A stretch of 64,000 nucleotides of DNA from Plasmodiophora brassicae (GCA_036867785.1 CP145418.1:496001-560000), one strand, 5' to 3'. Shown: positions 10,192-26,166, counted from the first letter of the stretch. The notes: generated by a model not told the origin, from the sequence alone. Made by a program: numbers and translations.

Positions 10192-11085
10192 ATGCGGCTA
10201 TTTGTAGAAATCGGTCGGCCCACCCGGCGGCCGATGATGATGATGGCGACGGGTGTCGACCGCGCCTTGACATCGACGCTGTACCGGCTCGACTGGGTCT
10301 GGCTGACACGAATCTGGTTCCCCATGTCGTACGTCTTCGGGTGCCCGCTGTTCCTGCCATTGATCCCGATCATTGGCGTTGCTCTGACACAGCCCGTCCC
10401 GCCTGCGTTCCCGTGGGTAGGCGTAGCCCCGGTGCTCATCGCCTGGATCGGCGTATCGTATTGCCTGTACCGCGAATGGATCCCTGGCACGGTCCCGTAC
10501 GATGTGTCGTGGGCGCTGATCGCGCTGGCGTACACGGGCACGTGCTCCGTCGCGATGCTGACGTCGGACGCGTTGCATGCCCAGGTCGGGTACATGCTGG
10601 CCTGGCTGCTGACATCGGCTCTGGCCGTGTTCCCGTTGAAGCAGATCGTCAGGCGCGGGCGCCCGTTCTCCACCATGCATCACGGGTTCCCTGTGGCATC
10701 GAAGCGTCGTCATGTGTTCGCTCTGCACGCTGTCGACGACACGCACTCGTCGTTTCCATCGGGTGACGCCGCCGGGGCCGCTGTCGCTGTCATGTGGTTC
10801 CATTCCTACTGGCCTGTCTACGACTGGCGAGTCGCCGCCCTCCTGGCGCTCGTGCTCGGCCTGGCCCGAGTGTGGTTCGGCGTGCATTACTGCTCCGACG
10901 TCGTGGCGGGGTGCACGATTGGCACGACGTTCGCGACCTGCCTGCACTCCATTTGGGCCAACGTTCCCAGGCATCACGCGCCCGCGATCATGTGCGGGTT
11001 GGCGATAGCGGCGTTCCCCATCAATTACGTTCGCCTGCGGATCAAGCAGTCGACGTCCGAATCTCTCAAGGCGCGATCGTTGTAA
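10192..11085 (+). CDS. PAP2/haloperoxidase-family membrane phosphatase (variant C2 motif)
   Basis: C1 KQIVRRGRP, C2 SFPSGD (normally PSGH), C3 ARVWFGVHYCSDVVAG, plus multiple hydrophobic helices. Intronless; the start could be 10234. Confidence 0.82.
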   Translation: MRLFVEIGRPTRRPMMMMATGVDRALTSTLYRLDWVWLTRIWFPMSYVFGCPLFLPLIPIIGVALTQPVPPAFPWVGVAPVLIAWIGVSYCLYREWIPGTVPYDVSWALIALAYTGTCSVAMLTSDALHAQVGYMLAWLLTSALAVFPLKQIVRRGRPFSTMHHGFPVASKRRHVFALHAVDDTHSSFPSGDAAGAAVAVMWFHSYWPVYDWRVAALLALVLGLARVWFGVHYCSDVVAGCTIGTTFATCLHSIWANVPRHHAPAIMCGLAIAAFPINYVRLRIKQSTSESLKARSL

Positions 11086-11185
11086 AGCCCAGTCTGCACG
11101 CGATGGACATTGTGAGCGGAAGGCTGTTGATGGACTTTATCATAGAAAGTGTGCTCGCGTCATGTCACGATGTTTGGTTTGTCGC

Positions 11186-12319
11186 CTACCAGTCCCACTC
11201 ATGGTCGAAGTGCCCATCGTGCCCGTCGTGGCCAAAGTGCCCGTCGTGTCCGTCGTGGTCAAAGTGCCCGTCGTGGCCATCGTGCCCAAAGTGGCCCTCG
11301 TGCCCGTCGTGCCCGAAGTGGCCATCGTGCCCAAAGTGGCCATCGTCGTGACCAAAGTGACCATCATGATCACCAAAGTGTCCATCGTGGCCAAAGTGGT
11401 CGTCGTGGCCGTGGTGCCCATCATGGTGCTCGTGCTCGTGCTCGTGACCGTGCATGAGCATCGGGTCGAACTCGTGCTCGTGGTCGTCGTGGCCGCGCAT
11501 GTGGTCGTGGTCGTGCACATAGACGGGCTCGTGGACGTGCTCGTCGTGGTGGTCGTGGTGCCCGTGCACGTCACCCAGGAACTCGTCGTGGTCGTGCTCC
11601 TCGAAGAACGTCGGGTGGTCCTGCTGTCGCATGCCGAAGTCGGCGTTCTCGTGCCCGTTGTGGGCGACCGGGTCCGCGTGGTGCTCCTCGCCCTCGTGCG
11701 GGTGCAGGTGCTGCCAGTCGTGCGGATGGACGCCCTCGCCGAACTCGAAGTTGTTGAGCTCGCCGCCGTTCGCGTGGCCCAGGTTGGCGTGCGTCGAGAT
11801 CGGGTTGTGGTCGTTGACGTGGTCGGAATCGTGGTGGTCGTGGTGGCCGTGGTGGCCGTGGTGATGGTCATCGTGCCCGTGCCCGTGGTCATGCTCGTCG
11901 TGCGCCACGCCGTCCAGGGCCTCGTGGTCGTGGTCGTGGTCGTGCTCGTGGTGCGCATCGTCGAGGTCGTGCTCCATGTTCTGGTGGGCGCCCTCGCGTT
12001 CGACCAGACGCAGATGCTCGTTGTCGTGGGCCAGCTCGTGCGAGTTGTCCATGTGCTTCGAGTACAGGTCCGAGTGGTCGTCAGTGGCCGTCACCGTCGC
12101 CGTCAGCGTCGCCGTCGTCTGCACGTTCGACTTGTCGTTGCCCTTGTGCTGCAGGATGTTCTCGCCCTTGTTCCTGTCGTTGGCGTTGACGTGGTTGTCG
12201 TTGTGGACGGCGCTGATGGCCCGGGCGCCGTGGGCCTGATCCCACCGGTCGTGTCGCTGGGCGGCGGCCATCGCCATGGCCAGCATCGAGACGAGCAGCA
12301 GACTCCGCATTGTTGTCAT
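11186..12319 (-). CDS. Secreted histidine/aspartate-rich protein (large family, copy A) with GHDGHF repeats
   Basis: Signal peptide MTTMRSLLLVSMLAMAMAAA, very His/Asp/Gly-rich body, C-terminal (GHDGHF)n repeats and strong C/G-ending codon bias. It shares the TATxTATxTATD..REGAH block with 22989-23819. Confidence 0.85.
   Translation of the reverse strand: MTTMRSLLLVSMLAMAMAAAQRHDRWDQAHGARAISAVHNDNHVNANDRNKGENILQHKGNDKSNVQTTATLTATVTATDDHSDLYSKHMDNSHELAHDNEHLRLVEREGAHQNMEHDLDDAHHEHDHDHDHEALDGVAHDEHDHGHGHDDHHHGHHGHHDHHDSDHVNDHNPISTHANLGHANGGELNNFEFGEGVHPHDWQHLHPHEGEEHHADPVAHNGHENADFGMRQQDHPTFFEEHDHDEFLGDVHGHHDHHDEHVHEPVYVHDHDHMRGHDDHEHEFDPMLMHGHEHEHEHHDGHHGHDDHFGHDGHFGDHDGHFGHDDGHFGHDGHFGHDGHEGHFGHDGHDGHFDHDGHDGHFGHDGHDGHFDHEWDW
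11200..11420 (-). repeat. Coding tandem repeat encoding GHDGHF/GHDGHD units
   Basis: Recurrent 9- and 18-nt units such as gtgcccgtc, gtggccatc and gtgcccaaa on the plus strand. Confidence 0.85.
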
Positions 12320-12673
12320 CGTGATCGTGGTGCTCTGATCCCTCCCTGCAGATAGGCGCACAGGGACGAGTGTTGCTGTTGCTGGGGGGCGAATAGATGC
12401 GGGTGGCCGCAAACGCTGCGCTTCGTTCGCTGGTGACGAAATATAAGAATGAAGGCTAAGCGGACATGAATCAGACTGGAGATGGCGAACGTTGCACTGG
12501 ACGTCATCTTGCCCAGTGTGACGTCACCGTCGCCGTCCCGGTCGTGAGTCACGCGCACCGACCCGGATCGAATCTTCGCCTCGTGACGCAACTGGGCCAT
12601 CGACAGGTGCATTGTCGCGGAGGCGTGCCCCAGTGCTCTGAAACACACTTAACTTATCGCAGAACGAAGTACC
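12320..12673. promoter_or_regulatory. Putative bidirectional promoter of two His-rich genes with bZIP-type motifs
   Basis: About 350 bp between divergent ATGs. Contains TGAATCA (12467), TGACGTCA (12519), TGAGTCA (12545) and TGACGCAA (12584). Confidence 0.5.
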
Positions 12674-12979
12674 ATGCGCCCGGGTGCCCTCTTTATCGGC
12701 ATTATCGTCGTGCTTGTCGCCACGACCGCGTTCGCCGGCGAGACGTCGATCACTGTGGAGCACGGCGACGGTCACGTCGACAACACGAACGAGAGCGGCG
12801 TCCATCACATTTTCGGCGACGCGGATCACAGGCAGGACGTTCGGCACCACGGCGCCGGGCATTCGGCGATCGACCACGATGGGGAATTCGGGCAGGAGCA
12901 CCGCGACGACGTTGCTGACGGGGACCATCACTGGCTGCACGTCGCCGACGACCTGCCGCCACATGTGGGGCATCACTAA
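12674..12979 (+). CDS. Small secreted His/Asp-rich protein (small family, copy A)
   Basis: Signal peptide MRPGALFIGIIVVLVATTAFA. The mature part VEHGDGHVDNTN..HHGAGHS..EFGQEHRDDVADGDH is paralogous to 25570-25887. Confidence 0.85.
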   Translation: MRPGALFIGIIVVLVATTAFAGETSITVEHGDGHVDNTNESGVHHIFGDADHRQDVRHHGAGHSAIDHDGEFGQEHRDDVADGDHHWLHVADDLPPHVGHH

Positions 12980-13979
12980 AATGAGTCTGACTGTTGGAAC
13001 CACGATTGGCTGGGTACAAGGTTCCCCTTGTCGTCAACTAGGTACGTGCGCAGACCTGGTAGACGCCCGTGTTCCGCACCGCCAGCAACGCCGCCTCACT
13101 GATCGGCAATCGCATCGTCCCGACCGGGTGTGCCTGTGGTACCCACCGCGATCTGAATGCGCCGCCCAGGTCGCCGACCGCGGGGCAATGCCCGGCATCC
13201 AAGAGTGTCCCGCATGGCGACGATGACGTTGCTATGCTCGCCTGCCATAGGGCTTTTGCTCTTTCGTTGATCGTTCATCGTCGGTGACGTAGGTGCGGGC
13301 GCGTCCTTGTTGTTTCCACGTGGGTGCTTGTGTGTGGTGTGCGCGATGCGCGTGCCCGTCCCTGGTGGCCAGGCCTTGCATCGGGGCGACAACGCGGATG
13401 GTTGTGGGCTCGCGAAACACCACCCGTCGTCATCACCCGACGGTACACCTCGGCGGTCTCACACGCAACGACAGCAGCAGCGGTCTAAACGCAAGGCGGT
13501 GGGTCCCAGGCCGGCGAGGATTCCCGTACTGGCTCGGCCCGTTTCGGTGGCATCCCAAGTTGGACAGAATGCCTGGGCCCCAACTACAGCGTTCACGGGG
13601 GGTCCAGCCAACCTTGACGTTTACTGCTTGGACGCCCTGTACCCCCATGCTCAGCAGCACATTGCGGTTTATCCCGGTGCGGTATTGTATAGTCGTTATC
13701 GTTCACCGTCAGACCCCGGCCTGCACAAACCCGGCTTGTACCGCACCCAGGCCTAAACGTCAAGTTCGTCGCAACAGGTAGGTGCACCAAATTCGGTTGC
13801 TGATGACCCTGCGACGCGACAATCTGCACTTTACGGTGTACGACTCATCGCAACTCATCGGCCCAGACGTGAACAGCGATGAAGATGACAATCATAAATC
13901 GCTTCGCCGTGGACCTGATCATTCCCAGCTAGCGTCGACTTCACGTGAGGCCGGATTCCGCCCCAACCCGCGCTTGATG

Positions 13980-14100
13980 TGCTCCTGCTATTGGCTGGCA
14001 AACAAGGCATGGGTTGGGGTTGACATCAACGATCGGCTTCATCGTGTGAAGGTAGAAGTCGTAAATAGAGCCGGTAATCTACAACTCTTTGCGTAATAAC
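13980..14100 (+). mobile_element. Degenerate piggyBac-like transposase fragment
   Basis: aacaaggcatgggttggggttgacatcaacgatcgg resembles the YNxxMGGVDxxD motif with small indels, followed by VVN.A.VIYN. It lies in a gene-poor region. Confidence 0.35.
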
Positions 14101-14660
14101 AATCTCGAATCCGTCTGCTGTTAACGGTCACAAGGAGTCCATTCTGTATGTGGGTCGCTCTCCTCGAGCGATTCTGGAACAGGGCGGCTACTGGCAATGA
14201 GGCTAACCATTGGTCGGATCACTCTATAGTTAGTTACGCTAGACGACCGTGTTCTGCGTAGAGCTTATGCAGGATATGGATGCCCTTGTATGCACGGCAA
14301 CGATGCATAACATCGTGGTGTTTTACAGAAAGAGCGAGCGAGCGAGAGAGAGCGACGCAGTATCGCCTTTCGTCGCCATACCTATTCAGCGCCAGTAGGA
14401 AACAACGCCATCGACGTATGACTGCGGAATGTCAAAGTCGCCGCTCACACTTCTTACACGAAACATCGCCATCCCGAGCATGCATCGTGGGCAGACTTTG
14501 TGCAGCGATATCCAGGGATCGACACATTGACGGTGGAAACGGTGACCACAGCAACGCATTGTTCGATATTCTGTATCACCAGGGTAAATGACGGGGCACC
14601 CGTTGGGACATCTGAAGGTGATTGAGATGGCGCGAATATGACGAACCGATGATTATTCCG

Positions 14661-15230
14661 TTACGGGTTGTCTTTTTCGCTCGGGAAGACTTCCAGATAT
14701 GTCATGGCATCCAGGATATCGATAGCAATGGCGGACCGAAGGGAATCGAGCGGTATATTCTTCAGCACTGCATCGGCAGCGAGCAGGAACTGGTGCATCT
14801 CGAGCGTGCAAGCTGCTGAAAGAAGCAATCTGAAGTTTACAGGCCGTCCGGCGTCAGCCTGGAGCTTATTGTGGATCCATGCGAGGGCATTTTCGATGGA
14901 CTATACATGACGGGTGTGCACGACGTTAGTTCATCTATTTGAGAAGAAGCGTCCACAGAGGATGCTTACCTGGTCGGTATTGTGCATAAAGTCAACGACG
15001 AGCAGCACCTGCCGCATGCCGATTGTGTCCATGGCTGCGTGATCCAGGCCGTTGCTGATTTCGCGTCGAATATAAGCGGAGTGGATGGCGGCCTGCGCGC
15101 TCTCCACACGATACCAAACATTTACATTGTTAGGTCGAAGCAGGAACGCGTCGCCAAGTACAATGAGACAAGCAATGAAGACTGCAACGTTGCGTAGTGG
15201 CGCGGGATCAACGTGCCGGTACGGCGACAT
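14661..15230 (-). CDS. Putative secreted SKP1/BTB-like protein
   Basis: A hydrophobic N-terminus (VAVFIACLIVLGDA) and intron 14901-14969 give a protein of about 166 aa. LRPNN..YRVESAQAAIHSAYIRREI, RQVLLVVDFM and LLSAACTLEMHQFLLA echo SKP1/BTB motifs. Confidence 0.6.
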
Positions 15231-15804
15231 TCTGGAACAGAACCTGACGTCGGGGCACAATAACGACAAACGGTTCGTACTTGGTCTGTCCTGCAAATTC
15301 GAAACTGGTCCGCAGCCTTCACGCAGCACGCGAAGTCAGGAGAGCAGGCCGGACTCCGCGCGCCCGCGGCCTGGCCGCAGCCCGCGAATCCCGGCCGGTG
15401 CTGCTTGGCCTTCTGCCCTCAGGCTAGTCTGACCACCACGGCACTGAATACCCTGCAAGGCGCGGTGCTGGCGCGTTTGGAGTGGTTCTGCAACACCTAT
15501 CCATTGCTGTCTCAATGTTTGGTATTGCATTCATAAACTAATGCTGAATATGTACCTAGGCGCCGGGGACTATAATTCGCGCCGGGCGGCATTCAAGGAT
15601 TACCTGGGGATGTCGTAGTGTTGAGTCGCCTGACAGGCACGCGTTCATACCCCCTAATAGGTAACGCCTCGGGGGCGGCGGTCAGGAACATTCCGTGTGG
15701 TGTGTCTATCTCGGGCCGTCCTCCGACCGACTGTCGCCCCTGCCCAGAAATAGGCACCGAACCGAGTGAAAGGGTGCGCCCAGTTCACTGAAGTCGGGGG
15801 GACG

Positions 15805-16750
15805 ATGCCTGTGACCCGTCTGGCATCAAGGTCCGGCCCTGCAACGACGTCGCCAAGGCCTGTCACGAGGTCAACAAGTCGGTCTGCTCGGTCGGCAAGC
15901 CCCGCCGCGAGGCTGGCAAGCCCTGTTACGAGGTCAAGACGCGAGCGGGCGCCGCGCGTCGCGTCGGAGGATGCGACGCCGCCTCGTCAGCGCGTGCGTG
16001 CCTCGGTCGATCCGGCACGTCTGCACAGGGCGCTCAGCGAGCGCTTATACCTGATCGGCCGCCGGGACTCGCCAGATGACCTCGCTGAAACGGATACCCT
16101 TGTGGGTGCCTCGCAACCTGCATCCTGTCACGTTGGGATCGCCGCTCATGGACGACGGTTCTCTGCAGGTGTACATCGTCCTCGGCACGACCGGCAATGT
16201 TTACTATCCCACGTTCTCCAGGGCGAAAGCGCCGACGTGCACGTGCCGCGACAATCGTGTGAGGAGAGTCCCATGCAAGCACATCCTGTTCGTCCTGCAT
16301 CGCGTCTTGAAATTGCCACGATCGGCCGACCACCGTGACATCGACGGCATGCTGGCCCAACGTAACCGGGACGATATCAAGAAGGTCCTGGCACCCGATG
16401 CGGTCCGAGAGGGGTACCTGGAACAGACCGGGTTCTCGCTCGACGACGAACCGTCGCTGGGACCCCAACGCCAACGCGTTGCCGAGGGGGGCCCGCGCCC
16501 CCTCGACAGAGGCGAGGATTGCCCGATCTGCTACGAGGACATGTCGAGCGACCCGCCCGGCCAGCTCGTCTGGTGCACCGCCTGCCGACGCAGCATGCAC
16601 GTGGACTGTTTCGGCAAATGGCGAGACGTCAAACTCAAAGGCCACGAGCCCGTCACCTGCGTCTACTGCCGGCAGCCCTGGCACGCCAGCATCGGTTCCG
16701 CCCCGTTCAAGCGCAAGCCCATGAACCTGGAAGAGTACCTTCGCGAATGA
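15805..16750 (+). CDS. SWIM zinc finger + RING protein (ZSWIM2/MEKK1 N-terminus-like)
   Basis: RALSERLYLI, VLGTTGNVY, SWIM CTCRD..PCKHILFVL and RING CPICYE..CTAC..HVDC..CVYCRQPW. Intron 16102-16168. Confidence 0.88.
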
Positions 16751-16875
16751 CCAGGAGCCCTGCCGTGGAACGCAACGGGCAGCACATGCTGAACGTGGCG
16801 TTCCAGCCAACGAGCCAGGCGGCGCGGCATCGGTGTGCCAGACGTACTCGTCGGCACGAAGAGGGCGCGCGATTG

Positions 16876-18171
16876 CTATGGCACGTCTAGGTCATATATG
16901 TCATTGTCGTCGCGCCTGGATCCCGCCATTGCGGACGTCGTCTGCCCTCTGCGTGTCCAGGCGCTCTTGACGCGTCGGCTGGGTGCAACCGTGGCCCCTG
17001 CCACCGCTTCCCTGGTGACGCACGGGTCCAGATCGGACGACCGCCTTGGGCCACCACCAACGCCTCCAGCGACCCTGAATGGTTCTCTATTGGCGGTGCC
17101 CAGCGTTCGGCCGCTGCCCTTGCGTAGGGTGCCCGAGTTGTCGACGCGTTGGTTGCCCTTGTCGGCACTGACGGTTGCGACCCGTTGCCCGGCTGTGACG
17201 CCAACCGCGTCCAGCGCGTTGGACGCCTTTGTGATCCGAACCGGTGGTGGTCGACCGCTGCCGGCCTTCGGGAGCTTCGTCGCGTCGCGATGGCGGCGGA
17301 TGCGTACCCAGACGGTCCCAGCGAGGCCGATCGCCACGGTCTTCGTCGCCAGTTGCAGGATCAGCGTCAGGACGTGGCTGACGCGCAGGGCAGCAAACAC
17401 GATGATGGCGATCCCGGTCAGAGCGGTCATGGCGAACGACATCAGCATGAGCGTCAGCACGGCCAGGTTGCGGGTCGCCTGCGCGTTCGTGTCCCTGGCG
17501 AACCTGCGCACCGTGTAGACGCCGATGACGAACATGCCGGCAAAGTTCACGAACACGGGGACGCCGATCGCGAGAGAGTATCCACTACGTTTGCGTCGTC
17601 CATCAGGTGCGACCGGCCACGGTCGTTGCTCACAGGCAGCCCTGACCTGGACCCTGAAATGCACGAGAACCCGAATCGTTTCGGTGTGTCGCCCGACACG
17701 AGGTTGATGATGGAGAGGGTCTGCAGGCAGAGAGCGTCAGGTCGTGTTCCAGCGTCCGCATCAGCCGGGCGTACGACGAAGAGGACGTTCTGGGCGTACA
17801 GGGCCGCCTTGAGCCATCTGGAGGCGCGCGCGCTGCTTTGATAGAAGATGGCCATCCGCGCGTGGTACAGGTTATAGTCGCTGAGCTGGCGGGCCCCAGT
17901 CATCAGCAACGTACGGCTGGCCAGCTGTGGCGAACGCGTCGCGACCCACAGCGAACAGCGCTTCGTGCATGAAGAAGGCGCACACGGTCGGTTCGACGGC
18001 CTCGGCGACGGTCAGCAGCAGGGTGGCCACCGCCGTCGCCAGGTTGACGCCGGACAGCACCACCGGGAACGCCGACCGGGGCGCGTGCGTGTACCGCATC
18101 GTCGTGAACGCCGCCAGCGCCGCCAGCAGGACGGCGACCTGCAGGTTGGCCCAGGTCGTCAGCCATGACAT
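16876..18171 (-). CDS. Multi-pass membrane protein, possibly GPCR-like
   Basis: Several hydrophobic helices across exons (LQVAVLLAALAAF, GVNLATAVATLLL, LAIGVPVFVNFAGMFVIGVY, LAVLTLMLMSFAMTALTGIAII) and a hydrophilic C-terminal tail. Confidence 0.55.
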
Positions 18172-18296
18172 CGATGGATTCGACCATCGGGTACGCTCGT
18201 ACCCGGGGCTCGCCTGCCCGCCTGCCCAGATCAAATCGTCCACGCGCGCGACGTACGTCGGTTACGGGATTGCATTGTCGGCGGCGCGCAACGCCC

Positions 18297-19700
18297 ATGA
18301 GGCGGTCGTTGGTGCGTCGCGTGGCAGCGGCCGCACCGGCCGCGTGGTACCTGTTGCGGCCGCGGCCGGCGCGATGCGATGACGAAGGGGCGGCGCCCGG
18401 GCCCGACTACATGACGCGGGCGTACGAGATCGCGTCGCCCGCCGTCGTCAACATCCAGTGCGAGTGTCGGCGCTTCCTGCGCGAGTACGTACCTACGTCG
18501 CTGGGTCGGTACCCGTCGTCGCGTGCGCCTGACGACCGGCCTCGTCCGAACAGGGTCGCCGTTGGCAGCGGCGTGATTGTGGGCGAGTCGGGGCGGGTGG
18601 TGACCAATGCGCACGTCGTGGCGAACTGTTCGACGCCGCCGGTGATCACGGCCGAGGACGGCCGGCAGTTCACAGGGCGCCTGGTGGGGTTCGACCAGAT
18701 GACCGATCTGGCGCTGTTGCAGATCGTCAACGAGACCGAGGGGCAGGTAACCGCACGCGCGTCACGCTCGGATCGCACATGACGGGTGGGCCCCTGGACT
18801 GACCGTCCCTGTGGAAAGACGTTCCCGGCTGTGCAATTTGCCAATTCGGATGCGGTTCGCCCTGGTCAGATCGTGCTGACCATCGTATGATCCTGCCCGT
18901 GTCGATATGTCCTGCCATACAGGTAGCCTGTTGACACGTTCCCACAGGGGTCGCCATTGCTGCTGCACACAACGGTGACGCATGGGATCATCAGTGCTGT
19001 CCAGCGCCAGAGCGCAGAACTGGGCCTGTCCAAGAGCCACCGGACCGACTACATACAAACGGGTTGGTTCGCTGGCCGCAGACGCATGTCGTTCTGTCTG
19101 AGCGTCGCGCTAGACGCTCCCATCAACTCGGGAAATTCGGGCGGCGCGTTAGTCGACCTCAACGGGCGCTTGGTTGGCATTACGACGATGAAGGCGCCGT
19201 TCGCTGCTGGCATCGGGTTTGCAATCCCGACCAATACCGGTGACAGGCGCTGCATATACCCGAGATGATTGCATTCTCACGCGTGCTCCAGTGCGGGCGA
19301 TTATTGATCAGCTGGAGAAGAACGGGCGCGTCCTTCGTCCATACCTTGGATTCGCAATGGTGACGTTGACGCCGGCGATCATTGCCAGGGAGCGCTCCAT
19401 CGGCGATTTCCCCGATGTCAAGGCGGGCGTTCTCGTGACAAATGTCGCGCCGTATTCGCCCGCCGATCGTAGGGAACGCTCGTCCGGCCCCAGATGTGCA
19501 CACCATCTCACATTGGTGCAGGTGCAGGGTTGCTCGCTGGCGATGTAATTGTTGCCGTTGATGGCGACCCCAGCATCAACAGTGTGAGGCTGCTCCTGCA
19601 ACATCTTGGGTTCGAGTCCCAGCGCGCGGTCACGTTCGATGTGCTGCGAAATCGAGGCCAACGGCTACGATTGTCCGTCACGCCTGTACCTCGGGAATGA
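18297..19700 (+). CDS. HtrA/DegP-type serine protease with PDZ domain (mitochondrial HTRA2-like), multi-exon
   Basis: [39 protein letters not shown] and PDZ ([17 protein letters not shown]). Arg-rich, transit-peptide-like N-terminus. Confidence 0.92.
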
Positions 19701-19742
19701 TGCTGTGTCCAATGAACCAGAACGAACCGCGCGTGAAAGTAT

Positions 19743-20327
19743 TTAGAAATCTAGGTCCACATCCGCTAGGTCCAGATTATCAATCCACGACAGCAGCGCC
19801 CTGCCTTCGTTGTCGTCCTGCGCGGCGTCTCTGTACGTTGACCGACTACAACTGTCCCGGGCACTATTTCGACTCGAGCGATCGCTGGCACGCCCAGAAC
19901 GTGCACTGGATCGTCCCGATGGTCGACACTCCTCCATTCGGACTGATGGCCGTCGCTGGTCGCGACGAATGTCTTTCCGACGTTTCGGTCGGACAGGAGG
20001 GTCGCCGCCTTCGGGCACGGTCACCTGTTCAGTAACGACGACATCGTCATGTGTCTGAAGGGCGTTGAGCACGTTTGCCCTAGCGAGGTCACGCTGCTTC
20101 TTGAGTAGCTCCTGAACATTCGAACGTCAGGGTGATGGATTCGCGCCGCGCGTTGGGACATGGGGCAACCAGTTGTTCGTGTTCGACCTGTTGCAGCATG
20201 CTGGCTAGACGGTACTCTCTCCATGGGCCGATGTGCATGCCTGGCAGTCAGCGCCAGCGGCTGCGATGGGTTCCGCCACGCCTCCGAATACGGGTTGACG
20301 TATACCTAGAGTACCTACGATCCGCAT
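19743..20327 (-). CDS. Hypothetical protein, spliced
   Basis: Open exons with GT-AG introns (HIGPWREYRLASML; C-terminal LLSWIDNLDLADVDLDF). No family recognised. Confidence 0.4.
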
Positions 20328-20418
20328 TGCTAAAGAATATCGTTCCAGGTCTACCGCGACGAACGAGACCTGAGAAACGGCGTTGACGTTATTAGGACTA
20401 AGAAATCTCTCCAACCGC

Positions 20419-22746
20419 TTACGACACGACGGCTGCTTGACGATAGGGGTTGAAGCGCGCGTTGACCATGTTGACGATGGCGGGATCGGGGTCGTCGGAG
20501 CGGTTAACATACAACGCCCATGCACTCATCATCTTGATCTCCGACTGCTGATCCTCAACGCTGTGCATACCTGGGCGACAATGAGAGATACTCCCCAGAG
20601 AGTAAGTAATCTGCTGAACTGACCAAAGATGACGCCGGCGTTTCGGTATACTTCCGGCTGGATATGACGTTTGGAGTACGGGGCATCGACAAAGACGGCT
20701 TCAGCAAGGGACGCAGCCAGGGCGACCACCTTCTTCGATCCTGGAGGAGGCCCTGAAGCAAGCACTTTGGAAGAACGTGAGTCGACCAGGGTGCCTGCGA
20801 CAAGATGCAAATACAACACCGGCAGCGTCGTTGAATAACGCTAGTTTGCGACTCCAGATGTCGCTGTACACAATGTACTCCCACAGGTCAGGCGTCAGCT
20901 GACCGCTTCCAATCTCTGGCAGATCCGGCAAGCTGCGTATAGCCCTCCTAATAAGCTTCAGCCTCTGCGACTTTGACAGCGGTTGACGTCGCGAGGAGAC
21001 GTAATTGCAGATGCCACTTGGAACCACCTAAAGTGGGAAGTATTATAACCTGGACACTAACCCAGGCAAGGTGGCCTCACCTCGTAGGAATCGAGTTGCG
21101 ATGTGTCGCCTTCTTTCCAATCGCCGCAGAGATAAATGGGAGCACGGCCCCAGTTCGCATCGAGGAAATCCTTCATGGAGAAACCGCCGGGTACGAACGG
21201 GTGATAGATAAGCCCAGGGAACGCCACATCGGGATAATGATAGCCCTGCCTTGGGATGAACCAGGGCCACGACATCAACTGAATGCTGACCAGGGACAAG
21301 TCATGCCGTCGTCCCTCGCACCCATAGAGATACTTGACGGCATTGTTGTTCAAATCACCATTGAGGAGTACAGTTGCATTGGCGGGCATGGAATTCAGAA
21401 TGGATTCCCCATACGCAGAGATGGCACTGAACCTGCTGAAGTCGCGGTTCTGCATTCCCATGCCGACGTGTACTGCGAGAGCGCCGATACAGATCGCATC
21501 AATCAGCTTTCCGACAGTATGTCGAGCCCAATGCCAGCCGTAGCCGGCCAGAAGAAACACGATCATGTTCGGTTGCATCCAGAAGCGCATCTGGACCCCC
21601 AGCATGAAATGCGTCAAGTCGAGGTTCGCCAAAGAATGGAACACAACGACATAGACAGCATATGCGAAGAGGAAGGCTGTTGCAGAGCTAACCCGGCGCC
21701 TGCTATCGCGAGCGAAGATGGCGAACGCACCAGCAGCAGCCAGGATGGAGAAGACGTACACGGATTCTTTCAAAAGGTACTGTAGATAGACAGCAAGCCG
21801 GCGTAGCAGCGGATGCTTCGAAGCGATTTCGTCTCCACCGAGCTGAAGCGTTCCGTACTGCGAGTTCATGGTTCAGACATCCGCACGCAGCGTACTACGA
21901 AACGCGGCTGACCTCTTGGCGAAGGACGTGCTTAACGAACCCTTGAAGGGTTGTTAAATCTCCCCACGAGTCGACAGGGCTCGTTGACGAAGAAATATAC
22001 AGCAGGCCGTAGGGCGTCAGACCCGCAAGGAAGCTAGCAGTCATGGCCGCCAGAGCCGACGGTTTCACGAGCATCTTCCATTCGGCCGCGATCAACGTCG
22101 TTGCAATCGGGGCGACGAACAGCGCAGTCGTATGCTGATTGGTCAGCGCCAACCCAGACATGAAGGCGCAGACGGATGCGCGCCATATCGATGGCGCGTC
22201 GAACACCCAGATCGTGAGGCGCAGTAGAACGGAGACGAATGCCAAGTGCAGCGCAAATACTTCAGCCTGGCCAGAGTACAACCATACAGTTGGGGAGAAC
22301 GCGAACGTCAGCGAGGTGACATAGGCGACGAATGCGGATCGCGTCATGGCGAATATGGAGCTGAACAGAACAGTCGCACTGATCGACGACAGCACGACAG
22401 ACAGAAGGTTGAACACCAATGCGGGCGTCACCGACTCTGCATGGGGCAAATGTGCCGCTAATCGCCACGCGCCGTGGTACATCCAGGTGAACGTCGGGTA
22501 ACCGGGCGGGTGGGCGACGCCCAACTGGCACGCCGACACGGCCAGCTCGCCGGCGTCGCCGCCCGATATCCCCCTCGACATCGTCGAGACGTACACAGCA
22601 AAGCAGGTGGCAAACACCGCCCCTCCCGATACGTACGCTGCGGATACATAGCGCCCAGGGCGTTTCACACCAGCAGTCGGCAGTCCCTCCAACCGGACGA
22701 CACCCTGTCCCCGGTCGGCTCCCGCGAGTCTCTTCGCGACCGCCAT
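20419..22746 (-). CDS. TMEM260: TMEM260/DUF2723 protein O-mannosyltransferase-like membrane protein, multi-exon
   Basis: ISGGDAGEL, LGVAHPPGYP, QAEVFALH, LTNQHT, SWGDLTTLQGFVKHVLRQEYGTLQL, RFWMQPN and NGDLNNNAVKY. Confidence 0.9.
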
Positions 22747-22988
22747 CGGCCTCCCAACGGGCCACACGAATCGCAAATGGCGGGTCACAAAAACGCGTCC
22801 TCCCACGATACAACCAGCTGGGTGGGTAACAGGCTCGCGAGAGTTCGGCTAGATAACGGTTGGAATTGAGCAGGAGGACATACTTCGTGTGACGTTAAAA
22901 TGTACAGGAGACGTTGTATTTGGATGCCATGATGGTGACGGGGGCGGGATCGACAATATAAGATCGCGACCGTCATGCTGCCCAGCGG

Positions 22989-23819
22989 TCATTGTGCTGC
23001 AGGTGGTGCAGGGCCGTCCAGTGCCGGTTTGGCGTCGGACTGGGCGGCGCCACCATTCTTCTTGTCGATGAACGGGAACAGCACCTTGAGAACCTCGACG
23101 TCCTGGAGGAAGCTGAGGTCCGGTGGCGGCGTTGTGGGTGCGACACCATCAGGACCGACAGCAACGTCGCCGTCGAGATGGGCGTGACCTTGATCATGGT
23201 GGGCACCTTCGCGCGCATCTTCGGTTATCGCATCATGGCCTCGTTCTAGAGATGCCTCGTGAGCGTCCCGGTGCACCTTAATATACGAATCCTCCTTCTC
23301 GTCGGTTGCTGTTATGGTTGCCGTTATGGTCGCGACAGTTTCGGTTTTCACCTTGTTCTTGCCGACGTGAACCTCCAGGTCGTCACCGCCTTCGCGAGCA
23401 TTGCCCAGGATGTTGGCTGCCTCAGCAACTCTAGCGTGGTCCACTTCGTGCGTTGAACCTTCGTTAGCCTGATGCACTTCAGCAGTGGGAGGCGCGTGTT
23501 GTTCGCCACGGTGCACAGGACGAGGATCCTCGTGTGGAGGAAGAACCTCCCGGCCGTATTCGTCGACGGCAATAGGGACAAGGATATGTGGCCTAGGCGG
23601 CACGTCCGCCGCTGGCCTGAACTCATCGGGGCGTTGTTGCTGCCTGTCTACTGGGGGCACGATTGGCCTGCCGAACTCGTCGACTCGTGTTGCGCCCAGG
23701 TGCTCCGGGGCAGGGGGATGGAAACTGGGAGGTTCTCGCCTCGGTAGGGCGTTGTCGAACCCATGACAGATGGCCGCGATCCCCACCGAAACAATGAGGA
23801 TGGCGAGGCGCGACGCCAT
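22989..23819 (-). CDS. Secreted Pro/His/acidic protein (large family, copy B)
   Basis: Signal peptide MASRLAILIVSVGIAAICHG, repeated VDE[FY]GR motifs, and the block KVKTETVATITATITATDEKEDSYIK..REGAHHDQGH shared with 11186-12319. Confidence 0.8.
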   Translation of the reverse strand: MASRLAILIVSVGIAAICHGFDNALPRREPPSFHPPAPEHLGATRVDEFGRPIVPPVDRQQQRPDEFRPAADVPPRPHILVPIAVDEYGREVLPPHEDPRPVHRGEQHAPPTAEVHQANEGSTHEVDHARVAEAANILGNAREGGDDLEVHVGKNKVKTETVATITATITATDEKEDSYIKVHRDAHEASLERGHDAITEDAREGAHHDQGHAHLDGDVAVGPDGVAPTTPPPDLSFLQDVEVLKVLFPFIDKKNGGAAQSDAKPALDGPAPPAAQ

Positions 23820-24009
23820 CGTGCCAATAGACGACCTTCTCTGTAGACTTATACCAATATGCCCGAATGAGACGTGACGGACTGGTGACAGATACTGGGA
23901 GCGATGACTCAACGGTGGGCTCTGCGTTGACGTCACCCGATTCGGTCGGTGACGGTGCACCCACCCCTGAGAAGTTCCTGACAGCAGCGTGACCGGAAGC
24001 TCAGCGAAT

Positions 24010-25423
24010 CTATTGAGTTGACCATTGGATAGATGGTAACGATGGAAGACGGGAGTCGGCTTGGGAAGCGAGTTCTAATCGCTCTCGAACAGCCCCTCCT
24101 GTTCGTGTCGAAATCAAAGAGCGTGCCGTCGAAATCCGTCCAGCACGAATCGCGGCGTGAATTGTAATGAGGGAGAAAACCTGTCGCTGTGCATTGCTGC
24201 CGCCCACCGACTTCAGCTCATGCCGGACTCGGAAGAGCGCCTCTAACGCCGCCTCGTCAAGGTTCAAATAATATGACATAATGCCGACGAGGCAGTCCCT
24301 GACGATCTGGCAAGAGCCACCAGAGCCATCCGCAACGATAGACACGATATCTTCCAGCTGGTCGACAGGGTCGACATGACAGCGGTGAATCAGGTAATGC
24401 GATGCAGTGAACGGGTATGAAAAGGAGGACTGGGTCGTGGCAACGAACTTATCAACGACACGCCAGCGAGTTCCGACATCGTGCCCAAGTATTTCTAGCC
24501 GCACCAGCAAGCTGACCGCATCGCTGACGTCCATGGCGTATCCGGCAGAACGGTGAAGTTCGGCAACGATCTTTCCGTCAAAGATATCGAGAGCCTCGCC
24601 CACACGGCCCAGGTGGATCAAGAATATCGCCCAGTGCCAGTAAATGTGACAAGCGAGATCAGCGTGCCGACTCCATGACGAATCATTTCCCGACAGTAAT
24701 TCAACGCCCTCTGAGCCGCACTTCACCATCAGAGCCCTGGCCCGCCAACATAGGTCCCTGGTGGACTGACGACGTACCGGCGTATCGTTCTTGTTCGAGA
24801 CGAACGTGGGCCAGAGCGTGAACCGCCCATGGATCCTCGTACCTTTGGAGAAGCGCTCGAACGGCATAACGTTCAGCCTCCTCGATGCGTCCGTTCTCAA
24901 CACATGCGAACGAGAGCATCGCATACACGTGATGCCGCGCATCGTGATTCACGGCAGGGACCGCGATTCGGCACGCCTCTTCCATGACGTGACTATTCCC
25001 AGCAAAGAAACACGCTGTCGTGAGGAACTTCAGGGCCAGCAGGTCTGTCGGGTTCGCCACGACGATTGCGAACCAGGACTCAATCGCGTCCGATCGTCGC
25101 GCCTGACTCCACAGATCAACTGCGCGGGCGTGATTCTTCACGACCGTCGTTTCGCAGGCGTCGGCAGTCTCCAGCATGGCAGTGATGACTGGATCTACAG
25201 GCGCATGTATGAAAGAACGCTGGAAACGGAGCAGCGCCACCATACAAACCAACCGTTGCGCCGCCGGCCAGACAGGGCAGCGACCCCGGCGACGAGTAAC
25301 GCCAGCATCGGGCAGTCCCCTGAGGCCGCACGCGCCAGTTCCACGCCGACGCCAACGTCGAACAGCATCAGGTGACGCGTGCATTCGTCGAGCCGCGACG
25401 CGTCGTGCGACGCCGACCCGCAT
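24010..25423 (-). CDS. TTC38: Tetratricopeptide repeat protein 38-like, multi-exon
   Basis: PTDLLALKF, DPWAVHALAHV, HIYWHWAIF, DAVSLLVRLEILG and VGGSNAQRQVF. Confidence 0.88.
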
Positions 25424-25569
25424 CGGCACGATGATGCCATCACCGAAGGGCGCACCAGAAAAAGCTGACGGCCGAACGCTCTACCGGCCTTGTTGTTGTC
25501 GCATGCGTTCTGTGAACGGTCTGAGACGAACGTGATACACTTTTATCGGCTATTCGGGGCGCTGGGCCA

Positions 25570-25887
25570 TCACAGGTGGTCGCCGTGGCCGCCGAAGACG
25601 TTGTGGGGCAGGTCGGCGGCGTTGTCCTCGTGCAGGTGCGTTTCGTGGTCACCGTTGCCGATGTCGTCGCGGTGCTTCACGCCGAAGTCGTCCTCGAGGT
25701 CCTCCCGCGAGTGCCCGAGGCCGTGGTGGACCTTGGTGTGCTCGAGGTCGTTGCCACCTAGGAAATGCCCGCGCGAGTTCGTGTTGTCGACGTGGCCGTC
25801 ACCGTGCTCGACGTTGACAAGAGTGTCGCCGGCGAGGGCACCAGCAACGAACAGGACGGCAAGGGAAGACGCCAAGAAGCTCTTCAT
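25570..25887 (-). CDS. Small secreted His/Asp-rich protein (small family, copy B)
   Basis: Signal peptide MKSFLASSLAVLFVAGALA. VEHGDGHVDNTN is identical to the 12674 protein. A TATA-like TATAAT lies about 50 bp upstream. Confidence 0.85.
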   Translation of the reverse strand: MKSFLASSLAVLFVAGALAGDTLVNVEHGDGHVDNTNSRGHFLGGNDLEHTKVHHGLGHSREDLEDDFGVKHRDDIGNGDHETHLHEDNAADLPHNVFGGHGDHL

Positions 25888-26166
25888 TGTCGGTAAGTAG
25901 TTCGAGGGGACGAGAACGAAAATTCAGAGACGTTCGATTATAGGATCACTTTGAATAGTGTCGACCAGGCGTCGATCGCGTGGAGGATATTGTCGAATCC
26001 ACCGATGTGTCATCACACCCCATCAGTCGGTGGTCTTGCACGCGTTGACTCATCGTCGTGATTCACGACCACGTGGTCACCAGTGGCCACCTGCACACCG
26101 ACGAGAAGAGCAGAACCACCAAGACGCGAGAGAATACATCGGAATTGGTTGTCGCGATCGGGCGCT

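Follow-up and report, generated by a model that had tools for sequence, protein, structure and literature searches.

Two families of candidate secreted histidine-rich proteins in Plasmodiophora brassicae and their possible role in metal binding

Secreted histidine-rich proteins of host-associated microbes are, as a kind, already known. The fungal zincophore Pra1 (Aspf2) is secreted, combines a His-rich region with a folded domain for which Pfam has a separate family, and is thought to capture host zinc; Plasmodium falciparum HRPII is built of Ala/His repeats; and the squid-beak HBPs and Nereis jaw Nvjp-1 are His/Gly-rich structural proteins. Here we describe four genes at positions 11,186 to 25,887 of a 64,000-nucleotide (nt) stretch of Plasmodiophora brassicae DNA (GCA_036867785.1 CP145418.1:496001-560000, hereafter the window), which form two families and are arranged as two pairs, A and B, of one large and one small gene each. 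At somewhat below even odds (a probability of about 0.45), we propose that three of them, those rich in His and Asp, encode secreted, disordered, multivalent chelators of divalent transition metals, which would let go of the metal on mild acidification and serve to take up or buffer metals where parasite and host meet.

The nearest described analogue, by likeness of form and unrelated in sequence, would be the DELD/Dld1 proteins of Serendipita (Piriformospora) indica. The accessible text of PMC3192844 describes DELD proteins of 101-135 amino acids (aa) that are secreted, His-rich, Cys-free, lineage-restricted and plant-root-induced, and the available portion of a review (PMC9610748) lists Dld1 in a table under metal ion homeostasis. 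In length, in the absence of Cys and in a signal-like N-terminus small A and small B agree with this description, but DELD proteins have a regular His/Ala distribution, whereas His, Asp and Gly prevail here. The C-terminal RSIDELD reported in the same text (PMC3192844) occurs in none of the four translations, at the end or inside; DELD proteins have been predicted to form two-helix bundles, in contrast to the low-confidence coil models obtained here; and no sequence relation was found between the proteins of S. indica, a fungus, and those of this rhizarian.

HRPII, for which PMC3192844 in its accessible text mentions Zn-dependent binding, is another His-rich protein that an intracellular parasite releases in abundance, but it is without the conserved head or core of the present families, and the small-family search returned no relative beyond nine plasmodiophorid-like sequences. 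Pra1 (Aspf2) would scavenge metal within a host much as proposed for the present proteins; here, however, Pfam gives nothing above cut-off and no partner transporter gene was seen next to the four genes in the window. The HBPs and Nvjp-1 share with the tail of large A tandem Gly-His-aromatic units, but the proteins described here are strongly acidic (Asp 15-16%, isoelectric point (pI) 5.1-5.5), have little or no Tyr (0-1%) and no Cys, and have relatives that are highly expressed during root infection. No homology to HRPII, HBPs or Nvjp-1 was found in an exhaustive profile search with the small family and in word-indexed searches with the large one, the named proteins themselves not being compared directly.

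Composition and conserved regions of the two families

All four open reading frames (ORFs) lie exactly where a first-pass annotation of this DNA had placed them, and the arrangement it described agrees with the coordinates (Table 1). The start codons of pair A are divergent and 354 bp apart; in pair B the large and the small gene are on one strand with one unrelated gene (24010-25423) in between; and each large gene lies less than 1.8 kb from a small one. No additional copy of either family was detected within the window by tblastn with all four proteins (next best E 0.4).

Table 1 Features of the P. brassicae locus (positions counted from the first letter of the window).
Feature	Position	Strand	Basis or remark
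Large A (P0001), 377 aa	11186-12319	-	ORF and translation; N-terminus resembling a signal peptide, then a conserved Thr-ladder core and an extended His/Asp/Gly tail
Tandem repeats in the DNA (degenerate; periods of 18, 27 and 45 nt), coding the GHDGHF-type tail of large A	11208-11420	-	Tandem Repeats Finder
Core block of large A, common to large B (TLTATVTATD region)	11984-12208	-	P0002 against the window by tblastn, E 0.007; hhalign E 3.3e-8
Divergent intergenic region large A / small A, 354 bp	12320-12673	.	ORF coordinates
Composite TGACGTCA, 18 nt, TGAGTCA	12519-12551	+	pair A intergenic; ends 123 nt before small A start codon
Small A (P0003), 101 aa	12674-12979	+	ORF and translation; exact protein in public collections
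Large B (P0002), 276 aa	22989-23819	-	signal-like N-terminus, Pro-rich part, two VDE[FY]GR motifs, Thr-ladder core, hydrophobic C-terminal motif
Core block of large B (TATITATITATD region)	23199-23429	-	tblastn; nearly invariant among 3 B-type sequences
Composite TGACGTCA, 16 nt, TGAGTCA	23905-23935	-	ends 86 nt before large B start codon, in large B orientation
Gene between large B and small B	24010-25423
Small B (P0004), 105 aa	25570-25887	-	ORF and translation
TGAGTCA (26046-26052), preceded after 14 nt by ACGT-core palindrome GACCACGTGGTC (26067-26078)	26046-26078	-	159 nt upstream of small B start codon

The description of all four proteins as His/Asp-rich, made in the same annotation, stood for large A (26% His, 16% Asp and 12% Gly in the mature protein), small A (20% His, 16% Asp) and small B (16% His, 15% Asp), and did not stand for large B, which is Pro-rich with 7% His. 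No other ORF of the window is as rich in His as the first three, which have an imidazole or a carboxylate at every third to sixth residue. The four mature proteins contain no Cys and 0-1% Tyr, with pI values of 5.1-5.5.

A single N-terminal hydrophobic segment with no later membrane-like segment was present in all 11 members tested (Kyte-Doolittle 12-residue mean of at least 2.0), and in the small family the mature start comes after a conserved small-residue position. These segments fit signal peptides, and the hydrophobicity together with the conserved small residues suggests that the proteins are secreted. If the signal peptide of large A is cut after the run of Ala, mature large A (start at 12250-12262) and its relative P0015 would both begin with Gln-Arg-His, an X-X-His start of the amino-terminal copper- and nickel-binding (ATCUN) type.

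Directly after the signal peptide all small-family members carry VEHGDGHVDNT or a near variant, within a head of about 80 residues whose alignment has 12 invariant columns and further conserved His, Asp and Gly positions. In five members (P0010, P0011, P0012, P0014 and the ORF of the environmental contig L001) this head is followed by a long His/Asp/Gly tail, so that the two small genes of the window represent a short, tail-less form of a head-plus-tail design. The tail of some small-family members is of the same kind as that of large A, and both large A and the L001 ORF contain 12 DGH units. The His/Asp content is conserved in all nine small-family members, with His at 16-22%. What unites the large family is a core of some 50 residues centred on a Thr-x-Thr ladder. 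In large B a conserved hydrophobic C-terminal motif and Pro-richness are found where large A has its 26%-His tail; the core is nearly invariant across three B-type sequences (large B, P0005 and P0006), which also share VDE[FY]GR-x-x-x-PP (two copies in large B) and the hydrophobic C-terminal motif.

The first-pass annotation had proposed two paralogous families, and the comparisons bear this out. Small A and small B are identical at 45 of 97 positions (46%; pairwise E 2e-21). Large A and large B share a single block, identical at 29 of 77 positions (38%), which pairwise reaches an E of only 0.027; comparison of the large A and large B profiles, each built with its own outside relatives, raised this to a probability of 95% and an E of 3.3e-8 over 51 columns (hhalign), and on the strength of that value the large genes are truly paralogous and the block reported for them is real. 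No sequence relation was found between the small and the large family (hhalign probability 1.4%). Since each large copy is nearer to an outside relative (P0015, 60%; P0006, 41%) than to its paralogue (38%, core only), the A/B split predates the divergence from these relatives, in keeping with the earlier suggestion of an old duplication as far as the large genes are concerned; for the small family, a tree built from the nine heads had support at 0 of 6 inner branches. The motif REGAH follows the core in both P. brassicae large paralogues (approximately 11984-12050 and 23199-23260) and is absent from P0005 and P0006, possibly through gene conversion between the paralogues or by chance.

No fold was recognized for either family. 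AlphaFold models built from family alignments of nine (small) and five (large) sequences had a mean predicted local distance difference test score (pLDDT) of 50.1 and 52.8, respectively, with the signal helix alone confident and the conserved large core at 34-41, values that suggest disorder in both families. None of 14 members (0/9 small, 0/5 large) matched a Pfam family above threshold; a Collagen (PF01391) hit on the Gly-rich tail of large A, at 24.4 bits against a cut-off of 27.2, was discarded, the Gly spacing there being variable (GHDGHF) and not every third residue. Sequence-profile searches of the PDB gave no match for the small family at E up to 1 and, as best for the large family, unrelated chains at E 0.12 and 0.55. 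In the ESM Atlas there was no match of 0.9 or above, large B reaching 0.84 at best with a "hypothetical protein" cluster and disordered matrix proteins, and P0012 having no usable match. The earlier view that these are unnamed families without a named domain thus holds for Pfam and the PDB. No published description of either family was found in the literature, including the accessible text of PMC7317818, PMC4471660, PMC4815078 and a TurboID preprint. Table 1 of PMC7317818 lists 32 SSPbP effector candidates, none of which is 101, 105 or 276 aa long; its single row of 377 aa, the length of large A, is the methyltransferase PbBSMT. As far as these literature, Pfam and PDB searches reach, the families appear to be undescribed.

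Transcripts, relatives and upstream sequences

RNA contigs from four runs of four studies were placed on 10900-26100. In all four runs the contigs over neighbouring genes have joints that are 51-72 nt long and bounded by GT..AG or CT..AC (at least 15 of them), and 13435-13941 is without contig cover in all four; from these two features the runs are taken to be RNA. The contigs report the presence of a transcript and carry no strand, level or stage. Large A lies inside a gapless contig piece (10900-12603 or 10900-12606) in 4/4 runs, the contigs that cover it stopping at 12603-12606 each time, and large B inside a gapless piece that starts at 22744-22905 and reaches 24710 in three runs and 24466 in the fourth (X16). 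RNA depth was found for small A in bin 12421-12927 and for small B in bins 25096-26100, again in 4/4 runs. Both large genes are transcribed and unspliced, and both small genes are transcribed. The first-pass annotation, which had called the genes intronless and had named missing transcripts as grounds for abandoning its reading, agrees with the contigs to this extent: RNA covers all four genes, and over both large genes it is gapless and collinear.

Neighbouring genes that all four lack introns are somewhat unusual in a genome whose genes, by the accessible text of the genome paper, average four introns each (PMC4471660). The neighbouring genes at 17584-21913, among them a trypsin-like peptidase gene from 18165 and a TMEM260-like gene, have many very short introns, and this intron-rich stretch (at least 15 joints of 51-72 nt, in all four runs) contrasts with the four genes studied here. 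Loose contig ends of 255 letters lie exactly inside the conserved head motif of small A at 12759 (runs X4 and X16) and of small B at 25812 (runs X4, X12 and X16). No splice-acceptor dinucleotide is present at either position, and the loose part at 25812, read in frame, resembles a different signal-peptide end, which hints at more transcribed paralogues elsewhere in the genome that would share 31-mers with the small genes. Contigs also break within the repeats of large A, with loose ends at 11315, 11395 and 11838.

Relatives outside the window were sought for the small family by an exhaustive profile search of 1.84 billion representatives (E up to 0.001) and for the large family by word-indexed searches. 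Inspection of the sequences behind the ten small-family matches left nine true members and one unrelated repeat protein. The nine are the two window genes, P0012, P0007, P0011, three JGI/IMG proteins and one Logan protein. P0012 is a third P. brassicae gene, located on another contig, and P0007 (accession A0A0H5QQ93) is from Spongospora subterranea; P0011 may be from Spongospora as well, judging solely by its UniParc number range. A word-indexed search with small B returned only small B itself among seven candidates. In a metagenome scan, one related locus was recognized among the 591 pattern matches listed, a small-family member on contig L001 (1596 nt), which carries no large-family gene. 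On this contig the 3' part of an actin gene (2-571) is followed 65 nt on by the small-family ORF with its very long DGH-rich tail (636-1511), a closeness which means either that the genome is very compact or that the assembly is chimeric.

The word-indexed searches identified P0005 (44% identical) and P0006 of S. subterranea (41%) as relatives of large B, and P0015 (60% over residues 1-135) as a relative of large A; because the UniParc number of P0015 falls in the Spongospora range, S. subterranea probably has a large A relative too. The family search of related protists that had been recommended with the first-pass annotation thus yields S. subterranea relatives of the small family and of large B. 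Both families appear so far to be confined to plasmodiophorids and a handful of environmental sequences. The exact large A protein is absent from a collection of 15 billion proteins in which the other three are present, each on six contigs, suggesting that the public gene model is not the same or that the His-rich tail varies in repeat length.

Expression values for the Spongospora orthologues are available from an in planta S. subterranea RNA-seq comparison of cultivars Gladiator and Iwa (Table S3 of PMC8471823), from whose accession-ordered sheet 57 rows were sampled. The small-family orthologue A0A0H5QQ93 has a base mean of 35,439 (log2 fold change 1.58, adjusted P 0.030), the highest among the sampled rows, with 7,610 and 2,528 following, and the large B orthologue A0A0H5RE08 has a base mean of 3,008 (log2 fold change 1.84, adjusted P 0.0069) (PMC8471823). 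Twenty of the 57 rows are significant, 19 of them up (PMC8471823), and because 19 of 57 change likewise the direction common to the two orthologues argues only weakly for coupling. Both accessions are missing from the supplement of a sporosori proteome, weak evidence given that few Lys and Arg residues make for poor tryptic detection, and from four supplementary files of spore-germination transcriptomes, which may use other identifiers.

Upstream of the study genes a composite pattern, TGACGTCA-N16-18-TGAGTCA, was noticed post hoc. It has exactly two matches in 64 kb, one in the pair A intergenic region and one upstream of large B (Table 1), and none of 100 shuffles contained any. The sites upstream of small B bear a looser likeness to the composite and do not match it. 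The half-sites TGACGTCA and TGAGTCA are classic sites of the basic leucine zipper (bZIP) type. Taken singly, neither part is enriched in the window (TGAGTCA, 8 found against 9.1 expected; TGACGTCA, 4 against 1.9), and a k-mer comparison of the three upstream regions gave two 7-mers in common where 0.78 would be expected, by itself no significant excess. A bacterial promoter and terminator scan of the intergenic region returned nothing, its models not being apt for a eukaryote. The composite element is a lead towards co-regulation and no proof of it.

The gene that splits pair B had been labelled TTC38; the label could not be confirmed, its only match being to TPR below threshold (E 0.0014). 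A TMEM260-like protein O-mannosyltransferase gene (21057-22746, minus strand, Pfam E 1.6e-21) begins 243 bp downstream of the large B stop codon; the conserved core of large B, a Thr ladder, may conceivably be O-glycosylated.

Proposed metal chelation and its alternatives

The genes, their transcription, paralogy, conservation and composition, the low-confidence folds and the upstream element that they share are observed; that the proteins are secreted and bind metal, where they act, and whether the two families are coupled, we infer. According to the reading we prefer, the His/Asp-rich proteins large A, small A and small B would chelate divalent transition metals (Zn, Ni, Cu or Fe) outside the parasite cell, and, the ligands being imidazoles, binding would weaken below about pH 6; the proteins may capture or buffer metal where the parasite meets its host, a role of the kind reported for the unrelated His-rich Dld1. 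The conserved head could provide a defined site or docking surface, with the variable tail setting capacity, and large B would probably have an accessory or different role. Metal binding had already been suggested in the first-pass annotation for all four proteins; judged by composition it is a reasonable inference for three of them, and the composition of large B does not extend it to the fourth.

Several points weigh against metal chelation as the function. Metal binding is predicted here from composition, and a His-rich composition fits pH buffering, coacervation, structural cross-linking or host-protein binding as well. Mature large B, with 7% His, 9% Asp and 12% Pro, is not His-rich. The case for secretion is built on a hydrophobic N-terminus together with small residues that are conserved ahead of the mature start, and a low pLDDT is no proof of disorder where the alignments are as shallow as nine and five sequences. 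The high expression figure is that of Spongospora, P. brassicae contributing transcript presence only. Finally, plasmodiophorids are reported, in the accessible text of PMC4471660, to lack histidine biosynthesis, which would make a 26%-His secreted protein costly and might mean another use, such as storage.

Storage itself, in which a His-auxotrophic parasite would bank host histidine in abundant secreted or stored proteins, as a nitrogen store or a proton buffer, draws on that reported lack of a pathway (PMC4471660, accessible text) and on the very abundant transcript of the Spongospora small-family orthologue, but a signal peptide and strongly conserved head motifs would be needless for it and the sporosori proteome supplement gives no evidence, weak as its silence is, of accumulation in spores; we regard it as highly improbable. 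The first-pass annotation had favoured a structural material, with large and small proteins as two metal- or pH-hardened components of the resting-spore wall or penetration apparatus. The Gly/His/aromatic tandem units of large A do bear a likeness to those of His-rich structural proteins, at mildly acidic pH self-association would be favoured by a pI of 5.1-5.5, and the Thr-ladder core of the large family could form a beta strand. Nothing was found, nevertheless, to support the proposed spore-wall or penetration-apparatus role: infected roots show high expression of the Spongospora orthologues, the sporosori proteome supplement and the four germination transcriptome files do not contain their accessions (weak evidence, given poor tryptic detection and possible other identifiers), Tyr is at 0-1%, Cys is lacking, and Pfam shows no chitin-binding domain. 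Such a role appears quite improbable. Somewhat better placed, though still unlikely, are host-directed disordered effectors whose heads and cores would act as short linear motifs for host proteins, with His and Asp secondary and serving solubility, pH sensing or lipid binding. Short, extremely conserved blocks within otherwise variable, low-confidence chains would suit effectors, as would the conserved motifs that large B has without His richness and the high in planta expression of the Spongospora orthologue; against this, 16-22% His has been kept in all nine small-family members, so that the composition itself seems to be selected, and no host target is known.

A separate matter is whether the two families belong together at all. 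That they are functionally unlinked, their closeness reflecting local duplication in a cluster of secreted-protein genes, is a serious possibility at less than even chances. The families have no sequence relation, the third small-family gene of P. brassicae lies on another contig, an unrelated gene interrupts pair B, and a same-direction change is common among the sampled Spongospora rows (19 of 57). Yet the composite TGACGTCA element has just two matches in 64 kb, one between large A and small A and the other upstream of large B, each large gene is close to a small one, and both families are present in P. brassicae and S. subterranea. The evidence for pairing consists of this proximity, the shared promoter element and the same-direction change of the two Spongospora orthologues; a physical two-component system of large and small proteins, as envisaged in the first-pass annotation, is unsupported. 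The most far-reaching scheme would unite both families in one conserved, co-regulated plasmodiophorid system, in which a bZIP-type factor acting through TGACGTCA/TGAGTCA would turn on large and small genes jointly, the disordered His/Asp tails would strip Zn, Cu or Fe from the host cytoplasm, and the invariant heads would dock on the large Thr-ladder core to form a metal-loaded coat at the interface. We consider it a long shot; if true, it would amount to a new metal-harvesting matrix in an intracellular eukaryotic parasite unable to make histidine.

Most predicted secreted proteins are not common to Plasmodiophora and Spongospora, according to the accessible text of PMC4471660. Both families described here, in contrast, are common to the two genera, and in infected roots the transcript of one member ranks with the most abundant of Spongospora, as seen in the 57 rows sampled. 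Since secreting a protein with 26% His would be costly for a histidine auxotroph, its function is worth knowing, and if metal binding by these candidate chelators is true, metal capture would be a conserved need of unculturable crop parasites, for which two easily produced proteins would be at hand for biochemistry.

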